Both the position numbers and the translations under genes were made by a program. A stretch of DNA of 64,000 bases from a virus (lineage: Duplodnaviria; Caudoviricetes): IMG/VR virus record IMGVR_UViG_3300029305_003084. The stretch is one strand, 5' to 3'. Shown piece by piece: positions 17,641 through 36,177 of the stretch. Numbering within the stretch: position 1 is the stretch's first letter; every line of letters begins with the position of its first letter. The notes under the pieces are model-generated. The model had not been told where the DNA came from, searched no databases, and worked only from the letters and a program-made list of their open reading frames with translations.

Positions 17641-18213
17641 TTATGTAGATAGAATTATATAAACAAATTCAAATTCGGAAGATGTTCCCATTCCATCATA
17701 ACTTCCGCTAATTGTTACTGAGTTATTACTCCATGATATGCTAGATCGATCATACCTCCAGGTACCACCTCTTACGCCAACTATAGTATATTGGAATGAG
17801 TCATGATATCCTTCTGGATCTGCACTAACAGTTTCTTGATTCATAGCGTTTCTTTCTGCATTAGAAATAATGATTGCCACTGGATATCCATCACATGATA
17901 ATGTTTTTGATTTACCATTATAATCGTATGTAAAACCACTATATTGACCATATGTAATTTTTAAAGAACTGGAGCTTGATAGTGCTGTAGAAATAGCAGA
18001 ATCGATTCCTAAATTAGTTCTAGCTTGTGTTGCTGTAGTTGCACCAGTACCACCATTTGCAATAGAAATTGGTAATGATGGGATTGAATTTAATTTGGTT
18101 TGTAATTCATTAATATCAGATACATTATGTGTATGTGATTTTACATTAGAGTTTTTAATTTCATCTAGTTTTGTTTCTACGATGCTAGATGAAAAATTAT
18201 CCATAATTCCCAT
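17641..18213 (-). CDS. tail-fibre-like cassette protein
   Basis: MGIMDNFSS start after SD; HTHNVSDINEL repeat; ISIANGGTGATTATQARTNLG fibre motif. Confidence 0.75.
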   Translation of the reverse strand: MGIMDNFSSSIVETKLDEIKNSNVKSHTHNVSDINELQTKLNSIPSLPISIANGGTGATTATQARTNLGIDSAISTALSSSSSLKITYGQYSGFTYDYNGKSKTLSCDGYPVAIIISNAERNAMNQETVSADPEGYHDSFQYTIVGVRGGTWRYDRSSISWSNNSVTISGSYDGMGTSSEFEFVYIILST

Positions 18214-18227
18214 TTTATACACATCCC

Positions 18228-18262
18228 CTTATAAACAAATTTATAATAAATTTGTTTATAAG
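18228..18262. repeat. palindrome A copy 1 (17-bp arms)
   Basis: CTTATAAACAAATTTAT-A-ATAAATTTGTTTATAAG abutting the SD of gene 18213. Confidence 0.95.
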
Positions 18263-18276
18263 CATGAATATAATTT

Positions 18277-18313
18277 AGAGATATATAGATTATTTAATAA
18301 TCTATATATCTCT
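18277..18313. terminator. long hairpin identical to 27810-27846
   Basis: AGAGATATATAGATTATTTAATAATCTATATATCTCT. Confidence 0.75.
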
Positions 18314-18319
18314 AAAAAT

Positions 18320-19021
18320 TTATTTTTTACCATATAAATAATAATTACATCTTACAAAATATGTATATGATGATGTAGATTTTGCACAACTTATCATTAT
18401 AGTATCTTTCCAGTTACATGTACAATTTACTAATTTACTACTTATCTTATAATTATCATTGTCAGTTTTACTCATTATTATACATTCACCGTTGAGTAAA
18501 TTAAAATCTGTATCTTTTTTAAATATAAAATCAATAACATGTGGTGCACTTGATTTAGTTGTTGCAATGAAAAATCCTTTATTATCAGTTTTGGTCGATA
18601 TAGTGGTAGAAACTTCATGATATGAATGATGGCTTAAACTAGCTGGGGTGCTTGTACTTGCATTAACAAATTCTATTACAGTATACTGTATATCACTATT
18701 TGATATAGCCCTAATATCTAATCTAAGTTTATATTCACTATAGTCTGAAGGGATTGTAATTTTAGGATAAGAATAATTATCACCCATACCACTTTTCAAT
18801 AATTCCCAATCATTAGATGGAATGGCTGAAGAGACTACATTAGAAATAGTTGTAGATAAATCTGAAATTTCTGAAGATGTATGACTATGTGTTTTTACAT
18901 CAGCATTTTTAATAGTATTTAATTCATTTTGTAAACCGTTAATATCATCAACATTATGACTATGATTTGTGGGCGGATATTTTAATCCTCCAATAGAAGG
19001 AATATTGTTAGTAATTGGCAT
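18320..19021 (-). CDS. tail-fibre-like cassette protein
   Basis: MPITNNIPS start; HSHNVDDINGL and KNADVKTHSH repeats; ends YLYGKK. Confidence 0.75.
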   Translation of the reverse strand: MPITNNIPSIGGLKYPPTNHSHNVDDINGLQNELNTIKNADVKTHSHTSSEISDLSTTISNVVSSAIPSNDWELLKSGMGDNYSYPKITIPSDYSEYKLRLDIRAISNSDIQYTVIEFVNASTSTPASLSHHSYHEVSTTISTKTDNKGFFIATTKSSAPHVIDFIFKKDTDFNLLNGECIIMSKTDNDNYKISSKLVNCTCNWKDTIMISCAKSTSSYTYFVRCNYYLYGKK

Positions 19022-19036
19022 ATATGTACTATCCTC

Positions 19037-19071
19037 CTTATAAACAAATTTATAATAAATTTGTTTATAAG
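19037..19071. repeat. palindrome A copy 2
   Basis: Identical to copy 1; followed by hairpin 19084-19118. Confidence 0.95.
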
Positions 19072-19127
19072 TATTAAAAAGTATTAGAAGATATAGGCAA
19101 TTTACCTATATCTTCTAAATATATTAA

Positions 19128-19787
19128 TTACTTATAACCATATACAACGGCATGTGTATATTTATTTATTGTATTTCCTCCCGTGGGGTTAATAGTAATC
19201 GTATTGAATTTGGTTGTACTTGTCATATATCCAGTAGAAAAACAGATGCCTACTGAACATTCCATTCTAGACCAATGTTCACAACTTTTATCTGATCCAT
19301 TTTGTCTAGGTACTAATGTTGATTCAATATAACAATCACTAAAGTTTGTTCCGAGATCAAAAGTAGGACCTGATGCATGAACACTATCTGAACTATATGT
19401 CATATTTTTAAATTTTAATTTATATCTATTATGTGTCGGTCCTGTAGAATCACTTTTAACAGTATCAAATCCAATACCTACACCAGTCATAGAACTACTA
19501 GTAGAAATATATGTAAATATTTTTATTTGTTTATAGTCAAATATATTAATAGTGCCTGTATTAATAGTCAACTTAGTTGATGTTGCATTAGTCGCCTGAA
19601 CCTCACCCAACTTTACAATAGGACTACTCATAGTTGATAATGTATCAGATAAACCAGTAATATCTGATGTATTATGTGTATGTGTTTTTACATCTGCATT
19701 TTTAATAGTATTTAATTCATTTTCTAACCCGTTAATATCGTCTATATCATGAATATGACCAGATGGTATATTATTTGTAATTGCCAT
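19128..19787 (-). CDS. tail-fibre-like cassette protein
   Basis: MAITNNIPS start; HIHDIDDINGL and KNADVKTHTH repeats; ends VVYGYK. Confidence 0.75.
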   Translation of the reverse strand: MAITNNIPSGHIHDIDDINGLENELNTIKNADVKTHTHNTSDITGLSDTLSTMSSPIVKLGEVQATNATSTKLTINTGTINIFDYKQIKIFTYISTSSSMTGVGIGFDTVKSDSTGPTHNRYKLKFKNMTYSSDSVHASGPTFDLGTNFSDCYIESTLVPRQNGSDKSCEHWSRMECSVGICFSTGYMTSTTKFNTITINPTGGNTINKYTHAVVYGYK

Positions 19788-19826: not shown

Positions 19827-19882
19827 CTAATTATATGAATTATATTAATGAAACATTTCATTAATATAATTCATATAATTAG
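19827..19882. repeat. palindrome B copy 1 (27-bp arms, CA centre)
   Basis: CTAATTATATGAATTATATTAATGAAA-CA-TTTCATTAATATAATTCATATAATTAG between divergent genes. Confidence 0.97.
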
Positions 19883-19942: not shown

Positions 19943-21643
19943 ATGGGAGTCATAAATAATCTTCCTAATAAAAATAGTGGTAATAGTAGTTCCGGTGGAG
20001 CTTTAATTAAAAAATATCGAGTTGCTTCAGGATATACAGTAAACGCCGGTGATGTTGTTAATGTAAATGATAATAATGAAATTTATTCTACAAATATAAA
20101 AACTGTAGTATATGATGATATTGTAGTACCAAATAATAATAAAAATGCAGAATTTGTTCAAATTAACGATAATACAATATTTGCAGTATATCGTGATTCT
20201 ACTAATTCGTATACATGTTATTGTATTGTAAAGTATATTGATGGTAATTGGACTGTTACATATACTAATAATTTAATAACATCGGGTACTGGTGAAAATT
20301 ATGAAAAAACTATTGTTAAAATGAATGATTATAGATTTTTTGTTACTGAACATGATACTGATAATGAGCCGACTGGTGATTTATATTTCATTCAATTTAA
20401 TAACGATTACTCATCTTCAACAATTGCAAGTATTGCTAATTCAATGAGCAATGATCGAGTAGTAGAAGTATATGAATCACTAAATGAATCCACATTACTT
20501 CAACTTGGTGGCTATTATAATGGTAACAATGGATATGTTGCAGTATACACTTTCGATGGAACTACAATAACAAAAGCCGTAGCTCCTAAGTCAGTATCTT
20601 CTTTCTCTTGTGGTGATGATCGTACGATAATAAAAACTGCAGAAAATAAAGTTATTGTATTATCTGAAGGCGGTAATAGTAGTGTTTCTTCTATATTTGG
20701 AATGACCTGGGATGGTTCAACTCTAACAACAAATAAGCTATTTTCAAATAGTACAAGTTCTGTACCATATGTAATATATCAAAATGATAATATAATTTTA
20801 GTATGTCATAGTTATGCTGGATCTTCATCAGATGCTATTTATAAAATTAGTAATATTACAGCAGATATCCCTACATTTGAGAAGGTAGTTACCACTAATT
20901 ATGAATCACCACTTAGAAGCAATTCTAGTACTACTATGTATTTAACATCTCAAAATAATACTTCATTATTTATAAAAGATAATAATATTTATGAATATAG
21001 TGTAGATTTAAGTACTTATGCATTCAATCTAGTAAACACATACACATTCACTCACTTTAAATCAACTGAAATTACATCATTGGAAAAAGTGGAATCAGGA
21101 ATTAAAATATTCGTGAATAATAAAAATTTTTATGATTTAAAATACAATTTACCAGTTACTGATAATGTCGTATTGTATAATTTAATTGTTTCTAGTTCAT
21201 CTGAATGTATTGCATTAGAATCAGGAAATGAAAATGCTGAAATTAATTGTATTTATTCTGGTTCTGCAGAATTACCAGTAATGAAAAAAGGTGATAAGAT
21301 TATTAGTTCTGGTATAAGTGCATATTGTCGTATTCCTGGAATTATTGAAATTGGTGCAGAGAATAATGAAAATTTCGTAATTGGCAGTTCCAGTAGTAGA
21401 AATATTGTTTTAGGTTTTATGCCAAAATCTATTGAAATTTTATTTAAAGGAACATCTGGTTCAAATACTGTTGTTACGACCTTTATTTCAAATCGTCAAT
21501 TTTCATCTTACACATGTAAATCATCGGGTGATTCATATCCTACACATAATTCATGTAAAATTACATATAATACTGATGGTGTAAGTGTACCATATGTTAA
21601 AACATCTGAAGTTGGCACTTATCAATATAAAGCATACTTTTAA
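19943..21643 (+). CDS. putative receptor-binding/fibre protein, beta-rich
   Basis: MGVINNLPN start; Ser/Thr/Asn-rich; C-terminal LGFMPKSI domain resembling protein 35693. Confidence 0.65.
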   Translation: MGVINNLPNKNSGNSSSGGALIKKYRVASGYTVNAGDVVNVNDNNEIYSTNIKTVVYDDIVVPNNNKNAEFVQINDNTIFAVYRDSTNSYTCYCIVKYIDGNWTVTYTNNLITSGTGENYEKTIVKMNDYRFFVTEHDTDNEPTGDLYFIQFNNDYSSSTIASIANSMSNDRVVEVYESLNESTLLQLGGYYNGNNGYVAVYTFDGTTITKAVAPKSVSSFSCGDDRTIIKTAENKVIVLSEGGNSSVSSIFGMTWDGSTLTTNKLFSNSTSSVPYVIYQNDNIILVCHSYAGSSSDAIYKISNITADIPTFEKVVTTNYESPLRSNSSTTMYLTSQNNTSLFIKDNNIYEYSVDLSTYAFNLVNTYTFTHFKSTEITSLEKVESGIKIFVNNKNFYDLKYNLPVTDNVVLYNLIVSSSSECIALESGNENAEINCIYSGSAELPVMKKGDKIISSGISAYCRIPGIIEIGAENNENFVIGSSSSRNIVLGFMPKSIEILFKGTSGSNTVVTTFISNRQFSSYTCKSSGDSYPTHNSCKITYNTDGVSVPYVKTSEVGTYQYKAYF

Positions 21644-21752
21644 TTAAATAAATCATATATAGAGATATACGAATAATTCGTATATCTCTATTTTTTATTA
21701 TTTATACTATAAAAAACAATCCAGTAATAAAATCAATTAATGGAGGAATATC

Positions 21753-22154
21753 ATGAAATATATTGCACATAGAAGATTTAAAGGAAGAGCAGCTTGTGGT
21801 GATGTTAATATTCCTGCAATGACAGAATTGTATTTAAAAGATAATGTAATTTATTATGAAGAATATCCTATTTGTTATTTTTCATCTGAGAATGCAAAGC
21901 AATATTTTACTGTAAATGAAGATGGACAGGGTATGCTTCGTGGTAAATTAACACAAGCAATTCAAAAGAAATTAGCAATACGAGATGAAAATTATCAGAA
22001 CCGATGGAATAAAATCTGGGAAGATAATTTATGTGTTAAGAAATATAAGAGAAAAGATAGTGGTGAAAACTATTTCTTATGGGATACTGAGTTCTTTAAT
22101 GCTCCTATTCTAGATCTACAGCATATTGCAAGTTTAATTGATGTAAAAGTATAA
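21753..22154 (+). CDS. conserved clostridial-phage hypothetical protein
   Basis: MKYIAHRRFKGRAACGDVNIPA; late motif at 21715-21726. Confidence 0.7.
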   Translation: MKYIAHRRFKGRAACGDVNIPAMTELYLKDNVIYYEEYPICYFSSENAKQYFTVNEDGQGMLRGKLTQAIQKKLAIRDENYQNRWNKIWEDNLCVKKYKRKDSGENYFLWDTEFFNAPILDLQHIASLIDVKV

Positions 22155-22195: not shown

Positions 22196-22768
22196 TTAAG
22201 CTTTCATTACATAACAAAGTGCATAGTAAGGTGGTCTGTTCTCATGAGCTTGTCCACCACCAGTTTTTCCAATTGATCCGCTAAGTGATTTGGCGGATAT
22301 ATTATAATCGTTAGCTCTATTTGAATTTTCAAATGTCGTTGTAGCAGTCGATATATTAGTATAAAAATTATAATTACTACTGTTACTAAATGTATGTGTA
22401 TGACTAGGCATTTGATTGGTCGTTAATGTTACAGTATCACTACCACCTGTAGCACCAACAGTATATGTACTACCAGCACCAACAATAAATCTATTTCGTA
22501 AATCAGGAGTACCATTAGTACCATCACACAGTAACCAACCATTAGGAATTGCATTAGATGCACCTGACCATAACACAATCATACCAGAAGGAATTCCTGA
22601 ATTGTTTTTTAACGAATCTAGTTCTGTAGATAGTCCAGTAATATCTGATGTACTATGAGAATGTGTTTTTACATCAGCATTTTTCATATTAGATACATCA
22701 GTTTTTAAATTTTTAATATCTTCAATAGTATCTGGATTGTCAGATAATATATTATTTAAAATTGACAT
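22196..22768 (-). CDS. short tail fibre with tail-collar domain
   Basis: IPSGMIVLWSG...GWLLCDGTNGTPDLRNRFIVGAG, HTHT, HENRPPYYAL; MSILNNILS start. Confidence 0.85.
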   Translation of the reverse strand: MSILNNILSDNPDTIEDIKNLKTDVSNMKNADVKTHSHSTSDITGLSTELDSLKNNSGIPSGMIVLWSGASNAIPNGWLLCDGTNGTPDLRNRFIVGAGSTYTVGATGGSDTVTLTTNQMPSHTHTFSNSSNYNFYTNISTATTTFENSNRANDYNISAKSLSGSIGKTGGGQAHENRPPYYALCYVMKA

Positions 22769-22810: not shown

Positions 22811-22866
22811 CTAATTATATGAATTATATTAATGAAACATTTCATTAATATAATTCATATAATTAG
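22811..22866. repeat. palindrome B copy 2, followed by a second 34-bp palindrome at 22869-22902
   Basis: Identical to copy 1; TATAAAAGAGAAACATATATGTTTCTCTTTTATA follows. Confidence 0.97.
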
Positions 22867-22922
22867 GTTATAAAAGAGAAACATATATGTTTCTCTTTTA
22901 TATTTTTAAGGAGGGAAATAGA

Positions 22923-24773
22923 ATGGCTATTGAATCAATTTTTCCTGACAAAGCTAGTGATACATCTTCTTCATATGAAGTAGGTGATATGAGAAATAGT
23001 ATAAAGAGTTATTTAGGTGAAGAGTGGGTATTATGTGATGGTCGTAAGGTTGATGAATCATTATATCCTGAAATATCTCAATATTTAGAAAAAGGTAATG
23101 CATTAGAAGAAAGTTATTCTAGTAAATATTTAAGTGATTCAAATACGGTAACTCCAGGTGGTATATATTATCACAATGGTGTTTGGTGTATGGTCGGATA
23201 TGTATACCATACAACTGCTTCAAAAGCCACATATTATCCATATTCATACCATACTACCGATCCATCTGGTGAATGGAAAGAGACTAAAATGGGTAATAGT
23301 ACCAGTTATATAACTGATGTATGTTATCATGATGGATTATGGGTTGCTTGTGGTTACGACAAAAGCAGTCATTATGGTCGAATTTGGTATTCTGATAATT
23401 TAGATAATGGATGGACTGAATATACTGCTACATCTAAAATGGATCGATTTTCATGCATTCATTATCATGATGGAATGTGGGTAATTGGCGGCACATATGT
23501 TAGTTATGAATCGGCAATATATTATACTACTGATATAAAATCAAAATCTTGGACTAGAGTAAGTTTATCATCATATGAAGATTACAATGGAATAATTTCT
23601 ATTAATTACGTCAATGGTTATTGGGTTGCTGGATGTAAAGGTGCTGGTGGTATTTTCTATACTACTGATCCATCTGGTACGTGGAGTCAAATGCCTATTG
23701 GTAGTAATATTAGTACACTTTCAGGAATGAACCATATATCGTATTATGACAATAAATATGTTGTTATTTCGGGACGTGGTGGAAGTGGTGGTTCTCCACT
23801 TCACTTACATGTATATTATACACCATCATTAAATACTCAATTAACAGGACGTACTACAATACTTACAAATAGTAGTGCATATCGCAGTCCTAATGTATCA
23901 TACAATAATGGGTTATATACAATTTTATCAATATATGATGGATATAATACATTATCGTATACTAGAAATCCATTAGATGCCTGGACAATTAAACAAATAT
24001 CACAATATACAACTACAAATGAAATTTTATCAGAAATATATACAACTGGTGATCAAACAGTTATGGTTGGATATAATGGTAGTACATTTTATCCATATAT
24101 TACATATACTGGGAAATCAGAATATATTATTCCTACAATAAATAATATTTCAGATATTAATACTTTTATTAAAGTGAAATCATCTAATAGTGGTTATAAT
24201 TTACCTAGTGGGTATATGTTATTAGATTATATTGAGTCATCTGGTACTCAGTATATTGATACTGGATTTACACCTAATCAAGATACAAGAGCAGTATTAG
24301 ATTTATGGGTAACAAATAATGCGAGTGGAAATGTAGCATTATTCGGTGCAAGACAAGGTACAAAAGTTACTACATTTGCAGTATGGCTTGGAGATGGTGT
24401 TGTTAATCCTCAGTATGGTTCTATTGCATATAACACCAAAACCTTAACTCTAGATTATGCAACACGATTAACTTACGATATGAATAAAACTGCATTTTCT
24501 GTAAATGGGCAGACTGTTACATTTGCAAGTGAAACTTTCTCTGCTGGATGTAACTTAACTTTATTATCTGTAAATACTGCAGGTGCTGTTGATACTCGTA
24601 TAAGTGTAGGTAAATTATATTCTTGTAAATTATATGATAATGGTACATTAATTAGAGACTATATTCCTGTAATGAATGAATTTGGTGTAGCAGGTCTTTG
24701 GGATTTAGTAGAAAAGAAATTCTATGGTAGTGCTACATCTACAGCATTTATTGCTGGTAATATTTTAGCATAA
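22923..24773 (+). CDS. fibre protein: collar-like N-terminus, propeller-like repeats, C-terminal LPSGY domain
   Basis: WVLCDG...YPEI, YTTDPSGTW repeats, LPSGYMLLDYIESSGTQYIDTG. Confidence 0.75.
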   Translation: MAIESIFPDKASDTSSSYEVGDMRNSIKSYLGEEWVLCDGRKVDESLYPEISQYLEKGNALEESYSSKYLSDSNTVTPGGIYYHNGVWCMVGYVYHTTASKATYYPYSYHTTDPSGEWKETKMGNSTSYITDVCYHDGLWVACGYDKSSHYGRIWYSDNLDNGWTEYTATSKMDRFSCIHYHDGMWVIGGTYVSYESAIYYTTDIKSKSWTRVSLSSYEDYNGIISINYVNGYWVAGCKGAGGIFYTTDPSGTWSQMPIGSNISTLSGMNHISYYDNKYVVISGRGGSGGSPLHLHVYYTPSLNTQLTGRTTILTNSSAYRSPNVSYNNGLYTILSIYDGYNTLSYTRNPLDAWTIKQISQYTTTNEILSEIYTTGDQTVMVGYNGSTFYPYITYTGKSEYIIPTINNISDINTFIKVKSSNSGYNLPSGYMLLDYIESSGTQYIDTGFTPNQDTRAVLDLWVTNNASGNVALFGARQGTKVTTFAVWLGDGVVNPQYGSIAYNTKTLTLDYATRLTYDMNKTAFSVNGQTVTFASETFSAGCNLTLLSVNTAGAVDTRISVGKLYSCKLYDNGTLIRDYIPVMNEFGVAGLWDLVEKKFYGSATSTAFIAGNILA

Positions 24774-24786
24774 GGAGGAAAATAAT

Positions 24787-26517
24787 ATGCCTCTAGTTTC
24801 TTCATTTTCCTCTGGTAGTTCAGGGGATAAATATCAAGTTGGTCAATTAAGACAGAGTTTAAGAAAATATTTAGGTGAAAATTGGGTAAAGTGTGATGGT
24901 AGTATTATTGATGAAACTGACTATCCTGAGTTATGTAAAAAAATGTACATAACATCAGATTTGGAAAATAATTGGGTTGCAAAAAAAGTATATAATTCTG
25001 CATCTGATATACCAAATATACAAAGTATATATTGTTATAACGGTACTTGGGCTATGATTGGACATCCCACTTCTGAAGCAACTAGTAAATATCCATATGT
25101 TTATTATACTAATGATATTACTGGCACTTGGAATGAAGTTAAATTTAATTTTGGTGGTGCACGTTTATATAATATTCGGTGTTATAATGGTCTATGGTTA
25201 ATTACCGGAAATTCTACAATATATTATACAACAGATTTATCTAGTTCATGGAATAAAATATCTTTAAATGGATATTTATGTAATATAGAATATGGTGATG
25301 GGTTATATGTGACTGCGTATTCTGATACTACTAATCTCACAAATCATGTTTACTATACCAATGATCCTACTGGGACTTGGACACTGATAACATTACCTAA
25401 TGTTAATTACTCCATATCTAAAATACAAAAGGTTATGTATGTCAATGACATATGGTATATATTTGCTATCAGTAGTAATAGGAATATAGTTTTGTGGTAT
25501 ACAGATGATCCTACTGGGACTTGGACTGGAAAATTAGTTACTACAGATAATGCATCATATTTATATGATATATGCTATCATAATAATATGTGGGTTGCAT
25601 GTGGTGATACTACCAATAGTATAGACGGATATTCAGTTATTTGGTATACAAATGATCCTACTAGAACTTGGAATAAAATTCAATCAAATAACACAGATGA
25701 TCCAGCTATAAAGTCAATAATGTATCATGGTGGTAGATGGATAGGTCTCACAGGTAAAGATTATTATCCATATATTTATTATACTAATCATCCTGCTGAA
25801 ACATGGACACTAACTCAAATTGCTAAAGATGTTACCCAGTCCGGAACATGCATGTATATATACAATAACGATATTGTAATCGGATCTAATAGTACATCAT
25901 ACGGACCTTATGTAATTTATCATAATAGTTCATATTATCAACTACCTGAAGCAAATAATACTTTTATTAAAGTAATGGAAAATGAATATACATTGCCTAC
26001 TGGTTATACCAGATTAGAGTATATTGAAAACAATTCTGATGCGTATATTGACTCTGGACTTGTTGTAAATAAAACTGATACATATGAATATATGATAGAT
26101 GCATTGTTCACAAATGATACATTTGCTGGTGCAAATGGTTATATGCAATTTAAGAGTGGAATAGCATCTAATACACGATCTAAGATTAGAGTAACTTATG
26201 ACGGTTCATCTAATGTAGAAAATATTTATGTTAATAATACATTAAATTCATCTACTGATTGGACCGATTCATATAATGGTACAAATGTAAAAATTGGTAT
26301 TTTAAAAATGGGTAATGCTGATAATACATGGTACGATAATAATGCTCAGACTGGTAAAGTATATGCACAAAGTATTAAAAAAGATGGAAAATTAGTTAGA
26401 AATTATATTCCTGTAATGAATGATTCCGGTGTAGTTGGTCTTTGGGATCTAGTAGAAAAGAGATTCTACGGTAGTGCTACATCTACAGCATTTATTGCTG
26501 GAACTAAACTATCATAA
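24787..26517 (+). CDS. fibre protein, paralog of 22923
   Basis: WVKCDG...YPEL, YTNDPTGTW repeats, LPTGYTRLEYIE domain. Confidence 0.75.
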   Translation: MPLVSSFSSGSSGDKYQVGQLRQSLRKYLGENWVKCDGSIIDETDYPELCKKMYITSDLENNWVAKKVYNSASDIPNIQSIYCYNGTWAMIGHPTSEATSKYPYVYYTNDITGTWNEVKFNFGGARLYNIRCYNGLWLITGNSTIYYTTDLSSSWNKISLNGYLCNIEYGDGLYVTAYSDTTNLTNHVYYTNDPTGTWTLITLPNVNYSISKIQKVMYVNDIWYIFAISSNRNIVLWYTDDPTGTWTGKLVTTDNASYLYDICYHNNMWVACGDTTNSIDGYSVIWYTNDPTRTWNKIQSNNTDDPAIKSIMYHGGRWIGLTGKDYYPYIYYTNHPAETWTLTQIAKDVTQSGTCMYIYNNDIVIGSNSTSYGPYVIYHNSSYYQLPEANNTFIKVMENEYTLPTGYTRLEYIENNSDAYIDSGLVVNKTDTYEYMIDALFTNDTFAGANGYMQFKSGIASNTRSKIRVTYDGSSNVENIYVNNTLNSSTDWTDSYNGTNVKIGILKMGNADNTWYDNNAQTGKVYAQSIKKDGKLVRNYIPVMNDSGVVGLWDLVEKRFYGSATSTAFIAGTKLS

Positions 26518-26534
26518 GTAAGGAGGGATAATAC

Positions 26535-27803
26535 ATGGCTATTTTATCAAATTTTGATAGTTCTTCTAATATCGTTTCATTAGAAGGTTATGAACTAGGC
26601 GATGTTGAATCCTTCGCTAGTTCAGATATAGAGTTAGATGAAACTTGGTTAAAATGTGATGGTAGTAATGTTGATGAGTCAAAATATCCTGAATTATCTC
26701 AGTATTTAACCAATAAAATTGACCCATCTTCAAGTGGATGGACTGTGAAAAAAATAAACAATAATACCAAAATAAAATTAATGAGTATTTATTACTATGA
26801 CGGATTGTGGGTAGGATGTGGATACACTCAAGCTAATAATTATCCGTGTATATTATATACGACTGACCCATCATCCACATGGACAACAAAAACACTCCAA
26901 TCATCAATAATATATACTAATTCAATTTATTGCTATAATGGTACATGGGTAATATGTGGTGCTACGGGTACAGGTCTTCCAATAATATATTATACCAATG
27001 ACCCTACTGGAACATGGACATATAAACAAATATCAACTTCTGGTGGTAATACTAATAGTTGTGATTCTATATATTGTTATAATGGTATGTGGGTAATTAC
27101 ACATTCAAAAACTAATGGGTATCCAGTAATTTATTATACAACTGATCCTACTGGAACATGGACGAGAACAGAAGTACAGACAGGATATTATGCTGGAATT
27201 CATAAAGTATATTGCTATAATGGTATATGGGTTCTATGTTTATGTTCTAATGTAAATAGTTATCCTGCACGTATTTGGTATACAACTGACCCTAGTGGAA
27301 CATGGACACAACAAAATATAGACACTTCAGTGACTGTACAAATAACTGATATATATCATCATAATGGATTATGGGTTGCATCAGGAAAGCATTATTCTTC
27401 AAATTTTCAATACTTTTTCTATTCAAAAGATCTCACTGGAACATGGTCGTCATTTATGAGTGATTTCTCTACAACAAATTTTAATGGTGCTTACACTTAT
27501 CCATTATACTGTCATAACGGTACATGGTTAATGGGTTCTACATCATATAGTACAAATGGTACATCAACTATATATTTAACATATAGTAATGATTTATCAA
27601 AAGGATATCAGGTTGTAGCATTACATAATAAAGTTGGTACATATGCTGTATTAACAGATATTTATGGTAATGAAGATACTGTATGTATAGCTGCATATGG
27701 TGATAATAGTAGTGAATATCCTTATATTTTATATAATAAGGGAAAATTAGTATTACCTAACACATCTTCTACCAATCCAAATACATACGTTAAAGCAAAA
27801 TAA
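26535..27803 (+). CDS. fibre protein, paralog lacking the C-terminal LPSGY domain
   Basis: WLKCDG...YPEL, regular YCYNGxW/YTTDPTGTW repeats. Confidence 0.75.
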   Translation: MAILSNFDSSSNIVSLEGYELGDVESFASSDIELDETWLKCDGSNVDESKYPELSQYLTNKIDPSSSGWTVKKINNNTKIKLMSIYYYDGLWVGCGYTQANNYPCILYTTDPSSTWTTKTLQSSIIYTNSIYCYNGTWVICGATGTGLPIIYYTNDPTGTWTYKQISTSGGNTNSCDSIYCYNGMWVITHSKTNGYPVIYYTTDPTGTWTRTEVQTGYYAGIHKVYCYNGIWVLCLCSNVNSYPARIWYTTDPSGTWTQQNIDTSVTVQITDIYHHNGLWVASGKHYSSNFQYFFYSKDLTGTWSSFMSDFSTTNFNGAYTYPLYCHNGTWLMGSTSYSTNGTSTIYLTYSNDLSKGYQVVALHNKVGTYAVLTDIYGNEDTVCIAAYGDNSSEYPYILYNKGKLVLPNTSSTNPNTYVKAK

Positions 27804-27862
27804 ATTATTAGAGATATATAGATTATTTAATAATCTATATATCTCTTTTTATAATGAATATA

Positions 27863-28227: not shown

Positions 28228-28264
28228 CCTTATAAACAAATTTATAATAAATTTGTTTATAAGG
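28228..28264. repeat. palindrome A copy 3
   Basis: Same core; followed by hairpin 28272-28314 nearly identical to 19084-19118. Confidence 0.95.
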
Positions 28265-28322
28265 ATAAAAAATATTTAGAAGATATAGGCACTTTACCTA
28301 TATCTTCTAAATATATTATAAT

Positions 28323-28703: not shown

Positions 28704-28751
28704 ATTTATTACCTCCTATAATAAATACTATATATTGTTTATGTTAGTATG

Positions 28752-28807
28752 CTAATTATATGAATTATATTAATGAAACATTTCATTAATATAATTCATA
28801 TAATTAG
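28752..28807. repeat. palindrome B copy 3
   Basis: Identical to copies 1 and 2. Confidence 0.97.
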
Positions 28808-28862
28808 GTTATAAAAGAGAAACAATGTGTTCATTAATATAGATTTAGATAGGAGGTAATTT

Positions 28863-29790: not shown

Positions 29791-29809
29791 TATTCAATTA
29801 ATATTTTAT

Positions 29810-29847
29810 CCTATTAAACAAATTTATTTATAAATTTGTTTAATAGG
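29810..29847. repeat. palindrome A copy 4 (variant with compensatory changes)
   Basis: CCTATTAAACAAATTTAT-TT-ATAAATTTGTTTAATAGG overlapping the AGGAGG SD. Confidence 0.9.
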
Positions 29848-29858
29848 AGGATAGAACT

Positions 29859-31466: not shown

Positions 31467-31811
31467 ATGGATAAGAAAGTAATTAAAGTTTTTATTTCTC
31501 AGCCTATGGGAAATAGAACAGAAGAAGAAATTTTAAAAGAAAGAAAAGATATTGAAAATCGATTAAAAGAATTTTATGAAAATATTGAGATTATTGATAC
31601 ATACTTTACTGATAATGCTGGTCCTATCGAATGTCTCGGTAAGAGTATTGGTATGTTAAAGGATGCTGACCTTGTTGTATTTGCTGATGAGTATAGATTA
31701 GCAAGAGGTTGTCGTATTGAAAATATGGTATGTCTTGAGTACGGTATTAGATGCATTAGTAATCTATACAACGATTACTACTTAGAAAGTGTATTTAAAT
31801 CATTCAAATAA
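31467..31811 (+). CDS. DUF4406 / nucleoside-deoxyribosyltransferase-like protein
   Basis: VFISQPM...DADLVVF...ARGCRIE. Confidence 0.65.
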   Translation: MDKKVIKVFISQPMGNRTEEEILKERKDIENRLKEFYENIEIIDTYFTDNAGPIECLGKSIGMLKDADLVVFADEYRLARGCRIENMVCLEYGIRCISNLYNDYYLESVFKSFK

Positions 31812-31857: not shown

Positions 31858-32151
31858 TTATACTAAACCTTGAAGTAGTAAAGCACCATTAATTTCTTCT
31901 AAAGATACAACTTCTTCAGTACCATGAAGTGCATTTTCTTTTAATGCAAATACAGTATCTTTAACAGTATTAACAGTAACTTCTTCTTTAGTTTCTTCAT
32001 CAATATGAGTGTAGGTGAAAGGTAATTTTACACATACACCTTCAGCTTCATTCATGTTACAAGGTACATAAGACCCGTTTTGATGAAGCTTAATATATAC
32101 AGCGGTTTCTGAATAACCGATTAATGAATTGTCTTTAGTAATTTTATACAT
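31858..32151 (-). CDS. small tail-associated hypothetical protein
   Basis: MYKITKD...YIKLHQNGSYVPC...AEG; downstream of DUF6273-like genes. Confidence 0.6.
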   Translation of the reverse strand: MYKITKDNSLIGYSETAVYIKLHQNGSYVPCNMNEAEGVCVKLPFTYTHIDEETKEEVTVNTVKDTVFALKENALHGTEEVVSLEEINGALLLQGLV

Positions 32152-32172
32152 AATATATTACCTCCATTTATG

Positions 32173-33015
32173 TTAAATGGTAATTAATGGAACGAAACCA
32201 TAAGAATATGAACCTTCCATAGCACCAGCATATGAACTACCCATCTCATATAATATTGCACAATATTTACCAGCTTTTTTATATGAAGGAGATCTAGTCC
32301 ACCATGAACATGGTGTAGTTGGATTATCATGTCTATATCTATCTTTAGAATTTCCAGCAGCATAATATGCTAATTGTTTTTGATAATTTTGCTCATAATT
32401 ATTAGCTATACTTCTAGTACCCATTACTTCAAATTCAGCAGGAACATATACTGTTTCTGTTGTTGTTGTGACATATTGAGACATACTTAAACCACTACCA
32501 GTATTACATGTATAGACAGTTCTAGATCTTAATATTGATTGTAGCTCTGATGGTAATGTATTCTTAAACTCGGCACAAATTAATGTTCTTAGATTAGAAT
32601 CTTGCCATCCTTCACTAATACCATCAGAATCATGGTCATGGTTAAAATAATCATTCATAATTGTACTGTTATATCCACTATCAACAAAAGCTATATCAAT
32701 GCCATTAGTTAATGTAGATTTACCAAATCCGCAAAGTATATGAGATTCACCATTTGTTTCAACATCTTTATTATGATCAAATGCCAATATTTGCATACAT
32801 ACTTTTGTATTGTTAAAAGTTAATCCAATACCAATAGAGCCATTTAATGTTACTTCTTTTACATCACCAACTGAAAAATAATTAGCTGCAACTCCAGTAT
32901 CGATTATGGTTTTAATATCTTCCCAAGATATATCATTAAATGGGGTGCCAATAGTAGGGAAGTTTGACGGTGCTACTAGAGGATTAACAATACCACTCAT
33001 AATAATTTTTCCCAT
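32173..33015 (-). CDS. DUF6273-like receptor-binding protein
   Basis: SWEDI, FSVGDVK, GWQDSNLR, AEFEVMG, WWTRSP...YGFVP. Confidence 0.75.
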   Translation of the reverse strand: MGKIIMSGIVNPLVAPSNFPTIGTPFNDISWEDIKTIIDTGVAANYFSVGDVKEVTLNGSIGIGLTFNNTKVCMQILAFDHNKDVETNGESHILCGFGKSTLTNGIDIAFVDSGYNSTIMNDYFNHDHDSDGISEGWQDSNLRTLICAEFKNTLPSELQSILRSRTVYTCNTGSGLSMSQYVTTTTETVYVPAEFEVMGTRSIANNYEQNYQKQLAYYAAGNSKDRYRHDNPTTPCSWWTRSPSYKKAGKYCAILYEMGSSYAGAMEGSYSYGFVPLITI

Positions 33016-33035
33016 AATATATTACCTCCCCATTA

Positions 33036-33980
33036 TTAAACTGCAAATATAGGACCGACGATATAGAAATATTTACAATCAATACTACTAATCGTTCCTG
33101 AATCACTAATAATTAAAAATTTATTTAATGAATCTGTTGGAACAGAACGTAAAAAACATCTTCCCCCAGATATACTTTCAACACTTGTCCCCTCATCAAA
33201 AATAAAATTTTTTAATTTACTATTTCCAGCAGCATAATATGCGTACTGTTTTTGATAATTTTGTTCATATTGATTTGCATATTTTCGAGTTCCAAATACT
33301 TCAAATTCTGATAATATTGGCAAATAATCTATAGTTGAAGTAACATTACTGGATACGTTACTATTTCCAGCTACATTATTTGAATATTTTATGATGGATT
33401 TCATAACAGATCGAAGATCTTCAGGTAATGTTGACATGAGTGTATTATTTACAGGATTTGTTGTGCATGTATCAGTTGGATTATTACCAGTACGCCCAGA
33501 AGAAGGAGAACTACCATAATTAGAAGGAGGTTGATTGGTACTTCCAAGAAAATCGTATCGTAAATCACATCCAGCCCATCCACCATAATTATAATTACCC
33601 CAATGATTCATATTAGAACCAATACCACCATTAGTTGCACTAGCCCAATAGTTTGTTCCAATACCTATATCATATCCTTTAACTTTACCAATACTAAAAT
33701 GAATGTGGTTTTCGCCTTCTATTTCAGAATTATGATTTATGCCTAAAATATATACATCAATAGCATAATTCGAAAATGTTCTACCATATGAAGAATTACC
33801 CAATTGACCATTTAAAATGATAGTTTTTGTATCACCAACTGAAAAATAATCAGCAGCAATACCAGCATTGGAAATTTTACGAATATCTTTCCAACTCATA
33901 TCATTTAAGTTAGTTCCGATTGGAGGTAATGCTATAGGCATAGTGGATTTTGACGCACCAGAGATAATAATTTTTCCCAT
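33036..33980 (-). CDS. DUF6273-like receptor-binding protein
   Basis: SWKDI, FSVGDTK, NYGGWAGCDLR, LSEFEVFG, QYAYYAAGNSK. Confidence 0.75.
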   Translation of the reverse strand: MGKIIISGASKSTMPIALPPIGTNLNDMSWKDIRKISNAGIAADYFSVGDTKTIILNGQLGNSSYGRTFSNYAIDVYILGINHNSEIEGENHIHFSIGKVKGYDIGIGTNYWASATNGGIGSNMNHWGNYNYGGWAGCDLRYDFLGSTNQPPSNYGSSPSSGRTGNNPTDTCTTNPVNNTLMSTLPEDLRSVMKSIIKYSNNVAGNSNVSSNVTSTIDYLPILSEFEVFGTRKYANQYEQNYQKQYAYYAAGNSKLKNFIFDEGTSVESISGGRCFLRSVPTDSLNKFLIISDSGTISSIDCKYFYIVGPIFAV

Positions 33981-33992
33981 AATAATACCCCC

Positions 33993-35177
33993 TTAAGCAG
34001 CAGAACCTGCAACAAATGCAGTAGAACTTGTACTTGCACAGAACTCTTTATTTACTAAATCCCAAAAACCAGCAACATTAGAAGAATTTTTGCAAGGAAC
34101 ATAATGTCGTATTAATGTACCATTATCATAGATTTGACAAGAATACATTTTAGCCGAAACATATCCAGAAATAGTTCCAGCAGTATTACATGCAAATAAA
34201 GCCAGATTAGTATTACTTTGGAATGTAGTAGCTGTCCATGTTTTATTATAACCATTAATTGTTAACGAATTCTTATTATAATCAATACTTAGTCTTTCAG
34301 TTATTGTAATACTTGAAAAAGCATATCTGTTATTACTACTACTATAGTCAGAATTCCAAGTACTACCACTTAATAAAAATACACTTTTTGAACCAGACGC
34401 TGTAGAATCACGACCTTCGAACAGCCATGCATGAGAAGAAGGTTGTGATGTAACCTGAGCATCAACAACAACTCGTGTATTCTGATTATGTTTAAAACCA
34501 GTGTCTAAATACTGGCTACCAGTAGATTCAATATATGATAATCTAGTATATCCGCTAGGTAGTGATATAATATAACCTGCATTAAATGCAGTTGAACTTG
34601 CACTACTATAGAATGTTTTACCAACAGTATCATACATACCAACAGTACCAGAAGAATTAACACATGGTACAAAGTTTCGAACTAATGTACCATTATCATA
34701 AATTTTACAATTTTTAATTTTACCACTGGAGCAGGTTTTTGCTGTACCAGCATCATTTGTACTAAATAAATATATAGAATAAGGGGATGAGAATGTATTT
34801 GCTGATGTGTATGTACCATCAGTAACAGTATCAGTTTTATTTACTGTAGTTACATCCTTATTTTTATCAATATGAGTAGCAGATGTTGATGTAACATATA
34901 TTTCATGTGCAACGTTATAGTCAGTTCTGATTTTACTATTTACAAATAGCATACTGAAGTTAACATTGGTACTAGTTCGTGCACCAAAAATCCAACAAGT
35001 TGTACTTGTATTGGGAAAATCACAATCCATTACAACACGAGTATCTTGATTTGGATTAAACCCAGTATCTAAATATTGTGTACCGGTAGACTCAATATAT
35101 GATAATCGAGTATATCCACTGGGCAATCCATTAAAACTATGATTACTACCTTTTCTTAAATATAGAATGTGGCCCAT
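33993..35177 (-). CDS. fibre protein with two tandem LPSGYTRLSYIESTG domains
   Basis: Internal duplication; domain shared with 22923 and 24787. Confidence 0.75.
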   Translation of the reverse strand: MGHILYLRKGSNHSFNGLPSGYTRLSYIESTGTQYLDTGFNPNQDTRVVMDCDFPNTSTTCWIFGARTSTNVNFSMLFVNSKIRTDYNVAHEIYVTSTSATHIDKNKDVTTVNKTDTVTDGTYTSANTFSSPYSIYLFSTNDAGTAKTCSSGKIKNCKIYDNGTLVRNFVPCVNSSGTVGMYDTVGKTFYSSASSTAFNAGYIISLPSGYTRLSYIESTGSQYLDTGFKHNQNTRVVVDAQVTSQPSSHAWLFEGRDSTASGSKSVFLLSGSTWNSDYSSSNNRYAFSSITITERLSIDYNKNSLTINGYNKTWTATTFQSNTNLALFACNTAGTISGYVSAKMYSCQIYDNGTLIRHYVPCKNSSNVAGFWDLVNKEFCASTSSTAFVAGSAA

Positions 35178-35515
35178 TAGACCACCTCCAGAATAAAGGG
35201 AATTTCTACAGTATTTGCATCACCATAGATATAAAACATAGCACCACCATCCACAGTTTCAGCATCACCATTGGTGATAAACTCTAAAAACTGATTGGTT
35301 TCTTCAACATAAGCAGCATAACCATCAGTAGTTCTTTCATGAGTATTAATGTTATCTGCCTTACCAGTATGCTTTGCAGTAACACCTTCAATAGCAACAA
35401 ACTGAGTTTTAACACCAGTGTTTTCATCCTCAGTCCAAGTAGTACTGATTACACCAGTAAATACTTTTGCACCAGATCCACCACTGTTGTTATTTAACAT
35501 AGGAATAAAAGCCAT
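35177..35515 (-). CDS. small tail-associated protein
   Basis: AGGAGG SD before ATG 35515; MAFIPMLNNNSG start. Confidence 0.7.
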   Translation of the reverse strand: MAFIPMLNNNSGGSGAKVFTGVISTTWTEDENTGVKTQFVAIEGVTAKHTGKADNINTHERTTDGYAAYVEETNQFLEFITNGDAETVDGGAMFYIYGDANTVEIPFILEVV

Positions 35516-35582
35516 AATATACTTACCTCCTAAATTTATTTTTAGTCTATTATAATAGACATATATGTTTTTCTTATAGATT

Positions 35583-35638
35583 CTTATTATATGTATTTCA
35601 TTAATGAAACATTTCATTAATGAAATACATATAATAAG
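35583..35638. repeat. palindrome B copy 4 (4 compensated substitutions per arm)
   Basis: CTTATTATATGTATTTCATTAATGAAA-CA-TTTCATTAATGAAATACATATAATAAG. Confidence 0.95.
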
Positions 35639-35692
35639 CTTCAATTTAAATAACAATAAATACATATATTCATACAGAAGGGATGATTGAAT

Positions 35693-36025
35693 ATGAGTTT
35701 TATTCCTATGCTAATCAATAATTCGGGGAGTAGTAATTCGGAAATTAAAATTGGTGCATATATTGGAGATAGTAATGAATCTCAAATAATAAATTTAGGA
35801 TTTACACCTTCAATTGTTTTCGTTGTGTGTAAGGAAGTTATTCATGATGATACAGGGGAATATAAAGCTATTGCATTGACTAATAATCCTGCAAAGGCTA
35901 CTGTCACGCGTCTTGAAATTGTTGAAAATGGATTTAAGTCATATTATTATAGCAGTACAACAGTTGCAAAATGTTCCATGCTAAATTACGCTAGTTACAA
36001 TTATTTATATATTGCAGTAAAATAA
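35693..36025 (+). CDS. small tail-associated protein
   Basis: MSFIPMLINNSG start; GAYIGD...INLGFTPS...YLYIAVK. Confidence 0.7.
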   Translation: MSFIPMLINNSGSSNSEIKIGAYIGDSNESQIINLGFTPSIVFVVCKEVIHDDTGEYKAIALTNNPAKATVTRLEIVENGFKSYYYSSTTVAKCSMLNYASYNYLYIAVK

Positions 36026-36177
36026 CTTGTTATATTTCAATTAATATGAGATATTCATATACTAAATAACTAATATGGTTTTAGAGATATAGGTAAAATT
36101 ACCTATATCTCTAATTGTTTTTAACCCTTGAAAACAATACTGTAATATTAATATATACAAGAAATGGGGTGACTAAC

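Follow-up and report, generated by a model that had tools for sequence, protein, structure and literature searches.

Introduction

The closest published concept for the locus analysed here is the promoter-early stem-loop (PeSL) cassette of T4-type phages, which mediates modular shuffling and mini-circles (PMC2839356, PMC4122927). There as here, near-identical composites of promoter and terminator separate ORFs that are unrelated to each other, conserved core genes border the hyperplastic region that contains these composites, and ORF content varies among close strains. PeSLs carry sigma70-type early promoters for the host polymerase, whereas the joints described below appear to carry late promoters for a phage polymerase. 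Unlike PeSLs, these joints are palindromic, include a Shine-Dalgarno (SD) sequence and conserved first codons, and have virion and fibre genes around them. A constant N-terminus followed by alternative receptor-binding modules, with variation concentrated in distal parts, is likewise a feature of invertase-driven fibre switching (Mu Gin/G segment, P1 Cin, shufflons) and of T-even fibre mosaicism, where gp38 is modular (PMC3157838). Unlike the Mu, P1 and shufflon systems, the present locus has no invertase and no large invertible segment, and its genes are separate and complete instead of being alternative C-terminal exons; any switching would be at the level of promoters.

The late promoter of phage AR9 has been published as AACA-N6-T[A/G], transcription starting at the last base (PMC5312081). 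The promoter-specificity subunit of the non-virion RNA polymerase, gp226 (PMC9209446), recognises the template strand of late promoters (PMC5312081, PMC5449584, PMC9209446). Promoters embedded in palindromes are not described in these three papers. Template switching at inverted repeats has been published as a cause of arm homogenisation and spacer inversion, and spacer inversion is a known type of mutation that requires no function (PMC8604942).

Results

The window, a stretch of 64,000 nucleotides, belongs to the 247,146-bp genome of an uncultured AR9/PBS1-like jumbo phage from the gut. Its prohead protease showed ~29% identity to the counterparts of AR9, PBS1, Staphylococcus jumbo phages, LPJP1 and phiR1-37. 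Two beta-like RNA polymerase genes (Rpb2_6 matches), a weak Rpb1_2 match for beta' and a homologue of AR9 gp226 (E = 9e-12, residues 9-246) were found in the genome, which suggested a multisubunit polymerase with a gp226-like specificity subunit, as in AR9. The stretch from 11.9 to 36.1 kb was missing entirely from two relatives of 210-227 kb that still had 130 of 261 genes in common with this phage. The locus is probably a late-transcribed, strain-specific island of receptor-binding and fibre genes, in a phage of the AR9/PBS1 kind with two phage-encoded multisubunit RNA polymerases.

An earlier note on the window had counted about 18 fibre-like genes in the locus (Table 1). We found one N-terminal peptide common to ~14 genes and a 21-codon remnant ORF, and four further genes were linked to these as paralogues, but the locus also holds non-fibre genes, namely the prohead protease (30618-31445) and a deoxyribosyltransferase-like gene (31467-31811). 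The peptide was present in the 566-aa beta-propeller-like protein and in the 112-aa protein left of B4. The C-terminal domain of the first two BNR proteins was found twice more in the 394-aa protein (33993-35177), and the 314- and 280-aa proteins matched DUF6273/phrog_37900. Strains of the X7/X8 type had a 210-aa fibre-like gene in place of the 110-aa gene right of B4, with the first ~10 codons kept.

Table 1. Coordinates of palindromes, hairpins and genes of the island in the window
Feature	Coordinates	Strand	Description
Three paralogous fibre genes	17641..19787	-	190, 233, 219 aa; common N-terminal region of ~60 aa (Pfam PTR)
Palindrome A1	18228..18262		17-nt arms, 1-nt centre; adjoins SD of gene 17641-18213 (-)
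hp2 copy 1	18274..18316		terminator-like on both strands; follows gene 18320-19021 (-)
Palindrome A2	19037..19071		identical to A1; adjoins SD of gene 18320-19021 (-)
hp1 copy 1	19084..19118	-	T-run on minus strand; follows gene 19128-19787 (-)
Palindrome B1	19827..19882		27-nt arms, centre CA at 19854-19855
566-aa beta-propeller-like protein, then 133-aa phrog_29409 protein	19943..22154	+	
Fourth fibre paralogue	22196-22768	-	tail-collar fibre, phrog_1800 match 6e-32
Palindrome B2	22811..22866		identical to B1
34-nt palindrome around AAACATATATGTTT	22869..22902		in flank common to right side of B1-B3
Three paralogous Asp-box/BNR-repeat propeller proteins	22923..27803	+	616, 576, 422 aa
hp2 copy 2	27810..27846		between convergent genes 26535-27803 (+) and 27863-28213 (-)
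Small cassette genes	27863-28213 (-), 28323-28703 (-), 29449-29790 (+), 29859-30512 (+)		N-terminal peptide MSI[IV][DN][NS]FSPFLG
Palindrome A3	28228..28264		18-nt arms; adjoins SD of gene 27863-28213 (-)
hp1 copy 2	28272..28314		terminator-like; follows gene 28323-28703 (-)
Palindrome B3	28752..28807		identical to B1 and B2
Palindrome A'	29809..29848		19-nt arms, 2-nt centre; adjoins SD of gene 29859-30512 (+)
Five-gene unit left of B4	31858..35515	-	112, 394, 314, 280, 97 aa
Palindrome B4	35583..35638		27-nt perfect arms; centre 35610-35611 is CA in the window
110-aa gene right of B4	35693..36025	+	N-terminus mirrors that of 35177-35515

Two families of palindromes punctuate the island. By fuzzy search of the whole genome, A (35 nt) had three copies identical at 35/35 positions (18228, 19037 and 28229) and B (56 nt) three copies identical at 56/56 (19827, 22811 and 28752). 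A' was a fourth member of the A family, its arm changes relative to A being compensated, and B4 a diverged copy of B with 8 differences that form 4 compensated pairs. This repetition was far beyond chance, and the search of all 247,146 bp, which the earlier note had called for, found no copy of A or B outside this locus. Every B sat between divergent genes. A start at 35665 for the gene left of B4 was rejected in favour of 35515, so that B4 too is intergenic. The flank order of B4 was reversed relative to B1-B3, and the flank with the 34-nt palindrome lay to its left, reverse-complemented. To the right of B3 only the remnant ORF (28863-28925) was found. On the minus strand the A joints ran from stop codon through a hairpin with T-run to A, GGAGG and ATG. 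Leftward from B1 came gene 19128, hp1 with A2, gene 18320, hp2 with A1 and gene 17641, and this arrangement was repeated from B3 as gene 28323, hp1 with A3, gene 27863 and hp2. The joints at 19012-19126 and 28204-28318 were 86% identical, and the adjoining genes were unrelated past their first codons. The earlier description of near-identical palindromic joints in a stereotyped order, better conserved than the genes beside them, was therefore accurate.

The motif AACA-N6-TA was enriched in this genome, occurring in 44 of 138 upstream regions against ~12 expected (45 counts upstream in sense, 7 antisense, 0 intragenic), and sigma70-like sites showed no enrichment (149 against 159). An AR9-like early consensus was present ~45 times in the genome, with no full-consensus copy at 14-44 kb of the window. 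The core motif was found on one strand of each palindrome, B centres reading AAACATTTCATTAAT and A reading AAACAAATTTATAAT, and against a PWM training median of 14.2 the B centres scored 11.3-12.5, A and A' 14.7-15.6. The perfect 56-bp palindrome of B has the CA of the AACA box as its two central nucleotides; in A, AACA-N6-T is present on both strands of the 35-bp palindrome and the single central base is +1, giving AACA-N6-TA on the plus strand of A1. The palindrome centre set the strand at only 8 of 220 such sites, these being A1-A3, A' and B1-B4, and relatives G1 and G2 had no promoter sites in palindromes of this sort. As in AR9/PBS1, upstream regions are enriched in the core motif, with a gp226 homologue, split beta/beta'-like genes and an AR9-like early consensus in the same genome. 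Unlike in AR9/PBS1, eight candidate promoters here lie inside perfect 35-56-bp palindromes, and their strand is set by just the 1-2 bases at the centre.

The motif lay upstream in sense of the plus-strand genes at B and not of the genes adjoining A1-A3 and A'. The predicted starts (+) were 19863 for B1, 80 nt 5' of the ATG of 19943-21643; 22847 for B2, directed at the three-gene BNR-propeller operon; 28788 for B3; and 35619 for B4. Leaders from B were 74-80 nt, unlike the 22-45 nt of most late promoters of this genome, and the 133-aa phrog_29409 gene had a consensus late promoter of its own (start 21726). The consensus strand pointed away from the adjoining gene in 12 of 12 A1-A3 copies, the window's included, and in A' (minus strand, gene 29859-30512 on plus), in every assembly. 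Consensus promoters were likewise missing for the minus-strand genes left of B1-B3, which brought the minus-strand genes without one to eleven, and motif variants in gene sense were not enriched (N6-TT 5/4/2, N7-TA 7/5/4, N5-TA 18/4/8). In two tested genes of this set dN/dS was 0.03-0.13, a value of purifying selection that indicates functional genes. Since such genes are functional yet have no consensus promoter, a purely conventional promoter reading leaves the expression of the A-abutting and minus-strand genes unexplained.

Terminator-like hairpins were enriched in the genome (27 found, 4.2 expected), and those accompanying the palindromes look like intrinsic terminators; the loop base of hp2 copy 2 was T, A or C depending on the strain. 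The A joint thus combines a terminator-like hairpin with a promoter-type palindrome fused to the SD. Together with the late-promoter consensus in A and at the centre of B, these sequence features supported the proposal that the joints carry expression signals. No RNA run among those listed contained this DNA. As RNA, A formed a hairpin of 16-18 bp whose end lay at or within the SD (z-scores -7.5 to -10).

Comparison of strains separated the joints from the gene bodies. Diverged strains from other gut samples kept B2, B4 and A3, along with hp1-type terminators and 9-44 codons at the start of the genes, and differed in gene bodies. A3 with its ribosome-binding site and first codons had 0 mismatches over 68 nt against 5.5% divergence alongside, and B4 had 0 mismatches over ~95 nt against 4.6%. 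Among near-identical strains gene order was fixed, more than 20 contigs from ~12 samples showing the reference order. The three BNR genes, with amino-acid identities of 99/64/41% and 40%, were exchanged between strains although only plain spacers of 13-17 nt separate them, and further mosaic breakpoints lay inside genes and between genes without A or B. In one contig (L058) B3-left was joined to B2-right, each side matching at 100% identity, but this contig could be a chimera of low coverage, formed at an exact repeat of 82 nt. The idea of interchangeable cassettes was borne out in part, in that bodies are swapped behind kept joints and two relatives have no island, but A and B cannot be singled out as the points of exchange, given the plain-spacer and intragenic breakpoints, the fixed order and the missing recombinase.

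At the centre of B4, three of eight other assemblies had TG instead of CA. This was the sole difference in 9,784 nt of contig L049 and 2,091 nt of L054, contigs L045 and L046 differed from each other by the same flip, and both states occurred in two strain lineages. The change was an exact reverse complement of the spacer, local in extent, with flanks unchanged and both arms still of B4 type, as template-switch spacer inversion would leave it. It would reverse the predicted direction of the promoter. No centre was flipped among 15 B1-B3 copies or 11 A1-A3 copies of other assemblies, nor at 13 other palindromes covered by the variant contigs, barring one ambiguous 1-nt loop. The difference between B4 (3/8) and B1-B3 (0/15) gave p ~0.03 (Fisher, one-sided), with the reservation that the JGI samples may share one study and the counts are not fully independent. 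Arm length was the same in B4 and B1-B3 and ssDNA hairpin stability similar (-21.4 against -22.5 kcal/mol). Inversion, which the earlier note had also proposed, was thus limited to this 2-nt centre, a form that had not been expected, besides the reversed flank order of B4; no large segment was inverted.

The absence of an invertase, integrase or reverse transcriptase, noted before for the window, extended to the whole 247-kb genome, where Y1 transposase and endonuclease VII were absent as well; searches with PF00239, PF00589 and PF01797, which included positive controls, and with PF00078 (reverse transcriptase) found nothing. A diversity-generating retroelement was rejected on the latter result. 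Fibre switching of the invertase or shufflon type was disfavoured by the missing recombinase gene, the reference order in more than 20 contigs and an inverted segment confined to the B4 centre.

Discussion

An AR9-type motif at the palindrome centres, together with terminator-like hairpins, leads us to read the joints as cassettes of late promoter, terminator and ribosome site. Most likely the phage's own RNA polymerase reads them as promoters and terminators, the promoter assignment resting on motif statistics and polymerase-subunit homology. As transcription and translation punctuation, they would serve the non-virion polymerase: B as a consensus late promoter centred in a palindrome between divergent genes, A as a palindromic promoter preceded by an intrinsic terminator and fused downstream to GGAGG-ATG. 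The cassettes would have multiplied within the island along with the short N-terminal peptide, perhaps used for virion docking, and ordinary homologous recombination would exchange gene bodies among strains wherever a stretch is conserved, be it a joint, a terminator or the N- or C-terminal codons. Perfect arms, compensated changes and the B4 inversion may all stem from DNA-polymerase template switching at inverted repeats. Quasipalindrome correction is a related template-switch process. Measured against PeSLs, the joints share the composite of promoter and stem-loop terminator and the near-identical copies between unrelated ORFs; for recombination between cassettes there is the L058 junction, which is that of a cassette-to-cassette circle though possibly a chimera, the other breakpoints lying inside genes or in plain spacers.

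Serine-recombinase sites have symmetric half-sites around an asymmetric 2-bp core, and B has this layout. Were A and B site-specific crossover sites, shufflon- or invertase-like or excisive, at which cassettes are inverted, deleted or exchanged, then the inverted B4 flanks would follow, and a circle or tandem duplication of 5.9 kb would leave the L058 junction. Such sites are very improbable in a genome without serine or tyrosine recombinase or the other enzymes sought, with more than 20 contigs in reference order, no hybrid B arms, a B4 flip confined to its own arms and the doubt over L058. The palindromes could instead mainly serve a dimeric late regulator as its operators, or form hairpins in the RNA of read-through transcripts and act via RNase III processing or SD masking, with the AACA motif secondary; in T4, some late genes have promoters inside a translation-blocking hairpin. 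The compensated changes in B4 and A' preserve perfect symmetry, the A hairpin reaches the SD, and confinement of the copies to one locus suits a dedicated regulator. We consider this very unlikely, as no candidate regulator was identified, RNA from the predicted central start of B would contain only one arm, and centres that coincide with the strand-determining bases in two geometries would go unexplained; template-switch arm homogenisation also accounts for symmetry without selection (PMC8604942).

The late-promoter reading, with template switching behind the symmetry, agrees with this published mutation type (PMC8604942) in the exact reverse-complement spacer, the unchanged perfect arms and the compensated arm differences within families. 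It departs from the generic type in that the spacer falls within a promoter box, which gives the mutation a predicted regulatory effect, and in that the flip recurred at B4 and at none of three sister sites of equal arm length, a distribution not easily accounted for by neutral template switching. A recombinase-free switch would go further, making the 1-2-nt centres heritable, reversible toggles that turn the late promoter to the other side. Flips would arise from template switching or cruciform processing, a clonal population would vary in the receptor-binding proteins made, and genome copies or virions would express different fibre members as host-range bet-hedging; A in its off state would fire into the adjoining bidirectional terminator, which would absorb the transcription. 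The presence of both B4 states in two lineages, as the sole difference over 2-10 kb in two samples, is consistent with this, as are centres made of exactly the strand-determining base or bases, the eleven minus-strand genes that, as assembled, lack a consensus promoter, and a hairpin within ~30 nt of each A on its consensus-facing side, which at A1 and A3 was called a terminator on that strand. The excess of flips at B4 would be expected if orientation affects fitness. However, most of these switches were never seen switched, since no assembly had a flip at A1-A3 or B1-B3, and spacer inversion can occur without function (PMC8604942). We therefore regard the switch as possible but rather unlikely. 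If it does operate, an inversion of 1 or 2 bp would redirect the late polymerase of a jumbo phage between neighbouring genes or gene sets.

The fibre island and its genome setting

The IMG/VR virus record that holds the window was 247,146 bp long with 28-29% GC, and metagenomes from animal faeces and bovine gut contained DNA of this phage; the samples listed with this DNA included no RNA run. The phage's prohead protease (Peptidase S80) shared about 29% identity with the counterparts in AR9, PBS1, Staphylococcus jumbo phages, Listeria LPJP1, and Yersinia phiR1-37. The genome encoded two separate RNA-polymerase beta-like genes, a weak beta' match, and a homologue of gp226, the subunit with which AR9 recognises its late promoter on the template strand (PMC9209446). 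The gp226 match spanned residues 9-246 only and contained one in-frame TAA, and in this phage the specificity subunit may be split or shorter, or its boundaries may be wrongly placed. The phage had 130 of the 261 genes in common with two relatives, 210 and 227 kb in length. Since 11.9-36.1 kb of the window lacked a counterpart in both relatives, the protease apart, this stretch was a genome-specific island between conserved blocks. The major head protein lay directly downstream. No match was found for the locus among annotated phages by megablast, for the BNR protein in the same collection by tblastn, or for the fibre and BNR proteins in the relatives G001 and G002 (also G1 and G2), and searching for relatives by means of the 566-aa protein returned none. 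Four neighbouring small proteins directly upstream of the fibre island were paralogues at 26-40% identity, and this group was absent from G1 and G2 as well.

The locus held about 18 fibre or adhesin-like genes. Four PTR/tail-collar fibres with a common N-terminus, three Asp-box propeller proteins, and two DUF6273 proteins each formed a paralogue family. There were also a protein in which a C-terminal domain of the first two Asp-box propeller proteins occurs twice, a 566-aa propeller-like protein, and several proteins of 110-217 aa, and a protein-atlas look-up gave no assignable family for a small cassette protein of 126 aa. The N-terminal peptide M-x-I-x-[N/D]-N-[F/I]-[S/P] was common to 14 genes and a 21-codon remnant, and was present in both partners at each palindrome B. 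In the remnant, right of B3, an intact Shine-Dalgarno (SD) sequence preceded the peptide MSIIENFS..., which was followed by a stop; a cassette gene seems to have decayed here, leaving this remnant behind its promoter module.

Probable late promoter and terminator signals at the joints

A whole-genome fuzzy search found exactly three copies of the 35-nt palindrome A, all identical, and three identical copies of the 56-nt palindrome B plus the diverged copy B4, all confined to 18-36 kb of the window; A' was a further variant of A. On the minus strand the A joints ran from stop codon through a hairpin with a T-run, A, and GGAGG to ATG, and every B copy lay between divergent genes. Two A joints were 86% identical while the genes adjoining them were unrelated past the first codons. 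Despite eight differences from B, the arms of B4 were perfect, as were those of A', and in the window the B4 flanks, not its centre, were inverted relative to B1-B3. Exact searches of IMG/VR, where near-identical records are possibly not covered, returned no copy of the A core, the B core, or B4 with its flanks beyond this genome. Ten matches to a B 20-mer in metagenome contigs were dismissed as chance, their flanks being dissimilar and no proteins being in common. The SD-to-ATG spacer between A2 and gene 18320-19021 was recurrently polymorphic in contigs from other samples.

The phage's own promoter motifs were worked out from its genome. The early consensus TTTCAAWTATATATTATAW occurred about 45 times, with no full-consensus copy at 14-44 kb of the window. 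AACA-N6-TA, the published AR9 late consensus (PMC5312081), was found in 44 of 138 non-early upstream regions against about 12 expected, and fixed upstream windows held 45 sense and 7 antisense copies compared with 0 in intragenic controls. The B centre reads AAA-CA-TTTCATTAAT, the last two bases of the AACA box (CA) forming the 2-nt palindrome centre, and this late consensus lay on the plus strand only, 74-80 nt ahead of the right-hand genes. Palindrome A carried AACA-N6-T on both strands, its single central base (A on the plus strand, T on the gene strand) being the +1 position. The palindrome centre thus set the strand, and it did so at only 8 of 220 genomic AACA-N6-TA sites, namely A1-A3, A', and B1-B4; no such strand-deciding site was found in G1 or G2. 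Terminator-like hairpins numbered 27 in the locus versus 4.2 expected, and included hp1 and hp2 at the A joints.

Because of these motif statistics and the polymerase homology, the joints are probably cassettes of late promoter, terminator and ribosome site, and the locus is best read as a hypervariable fibre island that contains a set of late regulatory cassettes. Among published concepts, the nearest is the PeSL of T4-type phages, promoter-terminator cassettes between which recombination shuffles ORFs and yields mini-circles (PMC2839356). The earlier note had described near-identical joints amid unrelated genes, a description that held when the search for copies was widened to the whole genome, and its reading of them as expression signals gained sequence support from AACA-N6-TA at A and B and from the enriched hairpins.

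Two other repeated elements were observed. Most other long palindromes, here and genome-wide, had stems of TAGAGATATAGG-like words and, at gene ends, behave as predicted terminators in both directions, apparently one terminator family spread across the genome. Outside the window, an early promoter with its leader occurred in eight near-identical copies (0-3 mismatches over 39 nt), with conservation reaching about 90 nt and short or no ORFs behind.

Coordinates of features (window-relative unless marked), predicted late starts, and centre flips as flipped/other assemblies
Feature	Position	Predicted late start (strand)	Flipped	Remark
A1	18228-18262	18245 (+)	0/11 (A1-A3)	
A2	19037-19071	19054 (+)		
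A3	28228-28264	28246 (+)		
A'	29809-29848	29829 (-)		
B1	19827-19882	19863 (+)	0/6	
B2	22811-22866	22847 (+)	0/5	
B3	28752-28807	28788 (+)	0/4	
B4	35583-35638	35619 (+)	3/8	centre 35610-35611
B4 repeat units	35596-35625			
Compared A joints	19012-19126; 28204-28318			
A2 spacer variants	19030; 19035			T>A in L050, L063, L064; T>C in L050, giving an SD like that of A1 and A3
Remnant ORF	28863-28925			
Small paralogues	14475, 16165, 16754, 17032			within 14475-17586
Prohead protease	30618-31445			
Major head protein	38565-40556			
Tract identical in L048	26654-27773			
Other long palindromes	17591, 21659, 30517, 31817, 36081			
gp226 match (L072)	G000:C1:77653-78372			minus strand, genome record
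Early promoter and leader	-87733, -87055, -86297, -81743, -81154, -80435, 93888, 118019			

Inversion of the B4 centre

A contig from another JGI sample (L049) differed from the window at 2 of 9,784 positions, both in the B4 centre, which read TG instead of CA, and in a contig from a third sample (L054) the same flip made up the sole two mismatches in 2,091 nt. Two contigs of a diverged lineage (L045 and L046) held opposite B4 states in otherwise nearly identical sequence. B1-B3 were unflipped in the very samples with flipped B4, and comparing B4 with B1-B3 gave a one-sided Fisher value of 56/1771 (about 0.03), from samples possibly not fully independent. The other palindromes covered by these contigs showed no flip, one 1-nt loop being merely variable, and B1 and B4 had similar single-strand hairpin stability. 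Since k-mers linking flank, 27-nt arm, and centre must exist in the reads, an assembly graph at k=31 or larger should not be able to invent the flipped path.

As described in PMC8604942, polymerase template switching at inverted repeats leaves an exact spacer inversion with homogenisation of the arms, and the B4 flip together with the perfect arms of B4 and A' would match this signature. Each B4 arm also contained a 14-nt unit, TTTCATTAATGAAA, itself a perfect palindrome and absent from B1-B3. The B4 centre is therefore unit-CA-unit, a direct and an inverted repeat at once, and this structure might bear on B4 alone flipping. Because the centre belongs to the promoter box, a flip should redirect the predicted promoter from the right-hand 110-aa gene to the left-hand five-gene unit; in the TG state the start is predicted on the minus strand, towards 35515. 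We found no publications describing centre-flipping palindromic late promoters.

Strain mosaics and the question of exchange

Diverged strains of the phage were found in contigs from other gut samples. Placing the contigs of four runs at 80% likeness produced many short spurious joins, and only those present in both diverged strain types, X7 and X8, were traced further in the actual contigs. Beside B2, a diverged strain kept the first 44 codons of the fibre gene at 94% identity, with the body replaced and an hp1-type terminator at its end. Other fibre-like genes took the place of the 566-aa gene. At B4 the 110-aa partner gave way to a 210-aa fibre-like gene that opens with the same 10 or so codons and whose last codons and hp1 hairpin were those of gene 19128-19787. 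Mismatches numbered 0 over 68 nt of A3, ribosome-binding site, and first codons, and 0 over about 95 nt around B4, in adjoining sequence 4.6-5.5% diverged; the joints are conserved islands in a diverged background.

The three propeller genes, separated only by plain 13-17-nt spacers, were swapped too (99, 64, and 41% identity in one strain, 40% in another). A 1,119-nt tract was identical in contig L048, with flanks 3% and 5.5% diverged and both ends inside genes, and dS differed tenfold between neighbouring genes nearby (0.023 versus 0.21), which together indicated recent recombination with intragenic breakpoints. Near-identical strains kept gene order throughout, and no serine or tyrosine recombinase, Y1 transposase, reverse transcriptase, or endonuclease VII was encoded in the genome. 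One contig, L058 (JGI 3300023371, 3,440 nt), joined the left of B3 to the right of B2, as expected at the junction of a 5.9-kb circle or tandem duplication carrying the propeller operon and two small genes. Its halves matched 26787-28831 and 22897-24285 at 100% and met at an 82-nt exact repeat, so it may be a low-coverage chimera, and it was rejected as proof of recombination between B2 and B3. The propeller swaps, intragenic breakpoints, fixed gene order, lack of a recombinase, and ambiguity of L058 argue against A and B as dedicated exchange sites. The structure is real and confined to this locus, and is very probably no dedicated recombination system.

The earlier note had proposed interchangeable cassettes with A and B as points of exchange or inversion. 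Interchangeability stood insofar as joints were kept while bodies were replaced, but propeller genes were swapped across plain spacers as well, and neither exchange at A and B nor a change of order among related strains was borne out. Inversion was confined to the exact 2 nt of the B4 centre, and the absence of invertase, integrase, and reverse transcriptase, noted for the window, extended to the genome.

Genes without a consensus late promoter in gene sense

Eleven minus-strand genes in all, those left of B1-B3 among them, were without a consensus late promoter, and at A-type elements the consensus was directed away from the adjoining gene in every assembly. Both such genes tested were under purifying selection (dN/dS 0.03-0.13). 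In gene sense, AACA-N6-TT, N7-TA, N5-TA, and AATG-N6-TA were not above controls, and variant late promoters were rejected for this reason; sigma70-type promoters were likewise rejected, with 149 sites in the locus versus 159 expected. These genes could be transcribed by read-through, and in such a transcript A is predicted to form a 16-18-bp RNA hairpin at the SD. They could also be expressed via weak non-consensus starts. Expression from flipped genome copies, which would make the palindromes switches, we regard as rather unlikely.

Meaning of the locus

Read in this way, the structure combines AR9-type promoters, PeSL-like cassettes, and template-switch inversion, all of known kinds. The roughly 18 fibre or adhesin-like genes of this uncultured gut jumbo phage stand behind reusable cassettes of late promoter, terminator and ribosome site. 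The PeSL idea is thereby carried over from early genes of T4-type phages to late genes that the phage's own polymerase transcribes, and a practical rule results for spotting transcription units in metagenomic phages that resemble AR9. The B4 flip is a natural polymorphism predicted to reverse a promoter without any recombinase, and this polymorphic 2-bp promoter centre is the feature most deserving of experiment. If neutral, it would be a clean case, found in nature, of spacer inversion by template switching, and a warning for anyone calling variants at palindromes; if regulatory, no smaller invertible genetic switch would be known, and lytic phages would have a new route to host-range heterogeneity.
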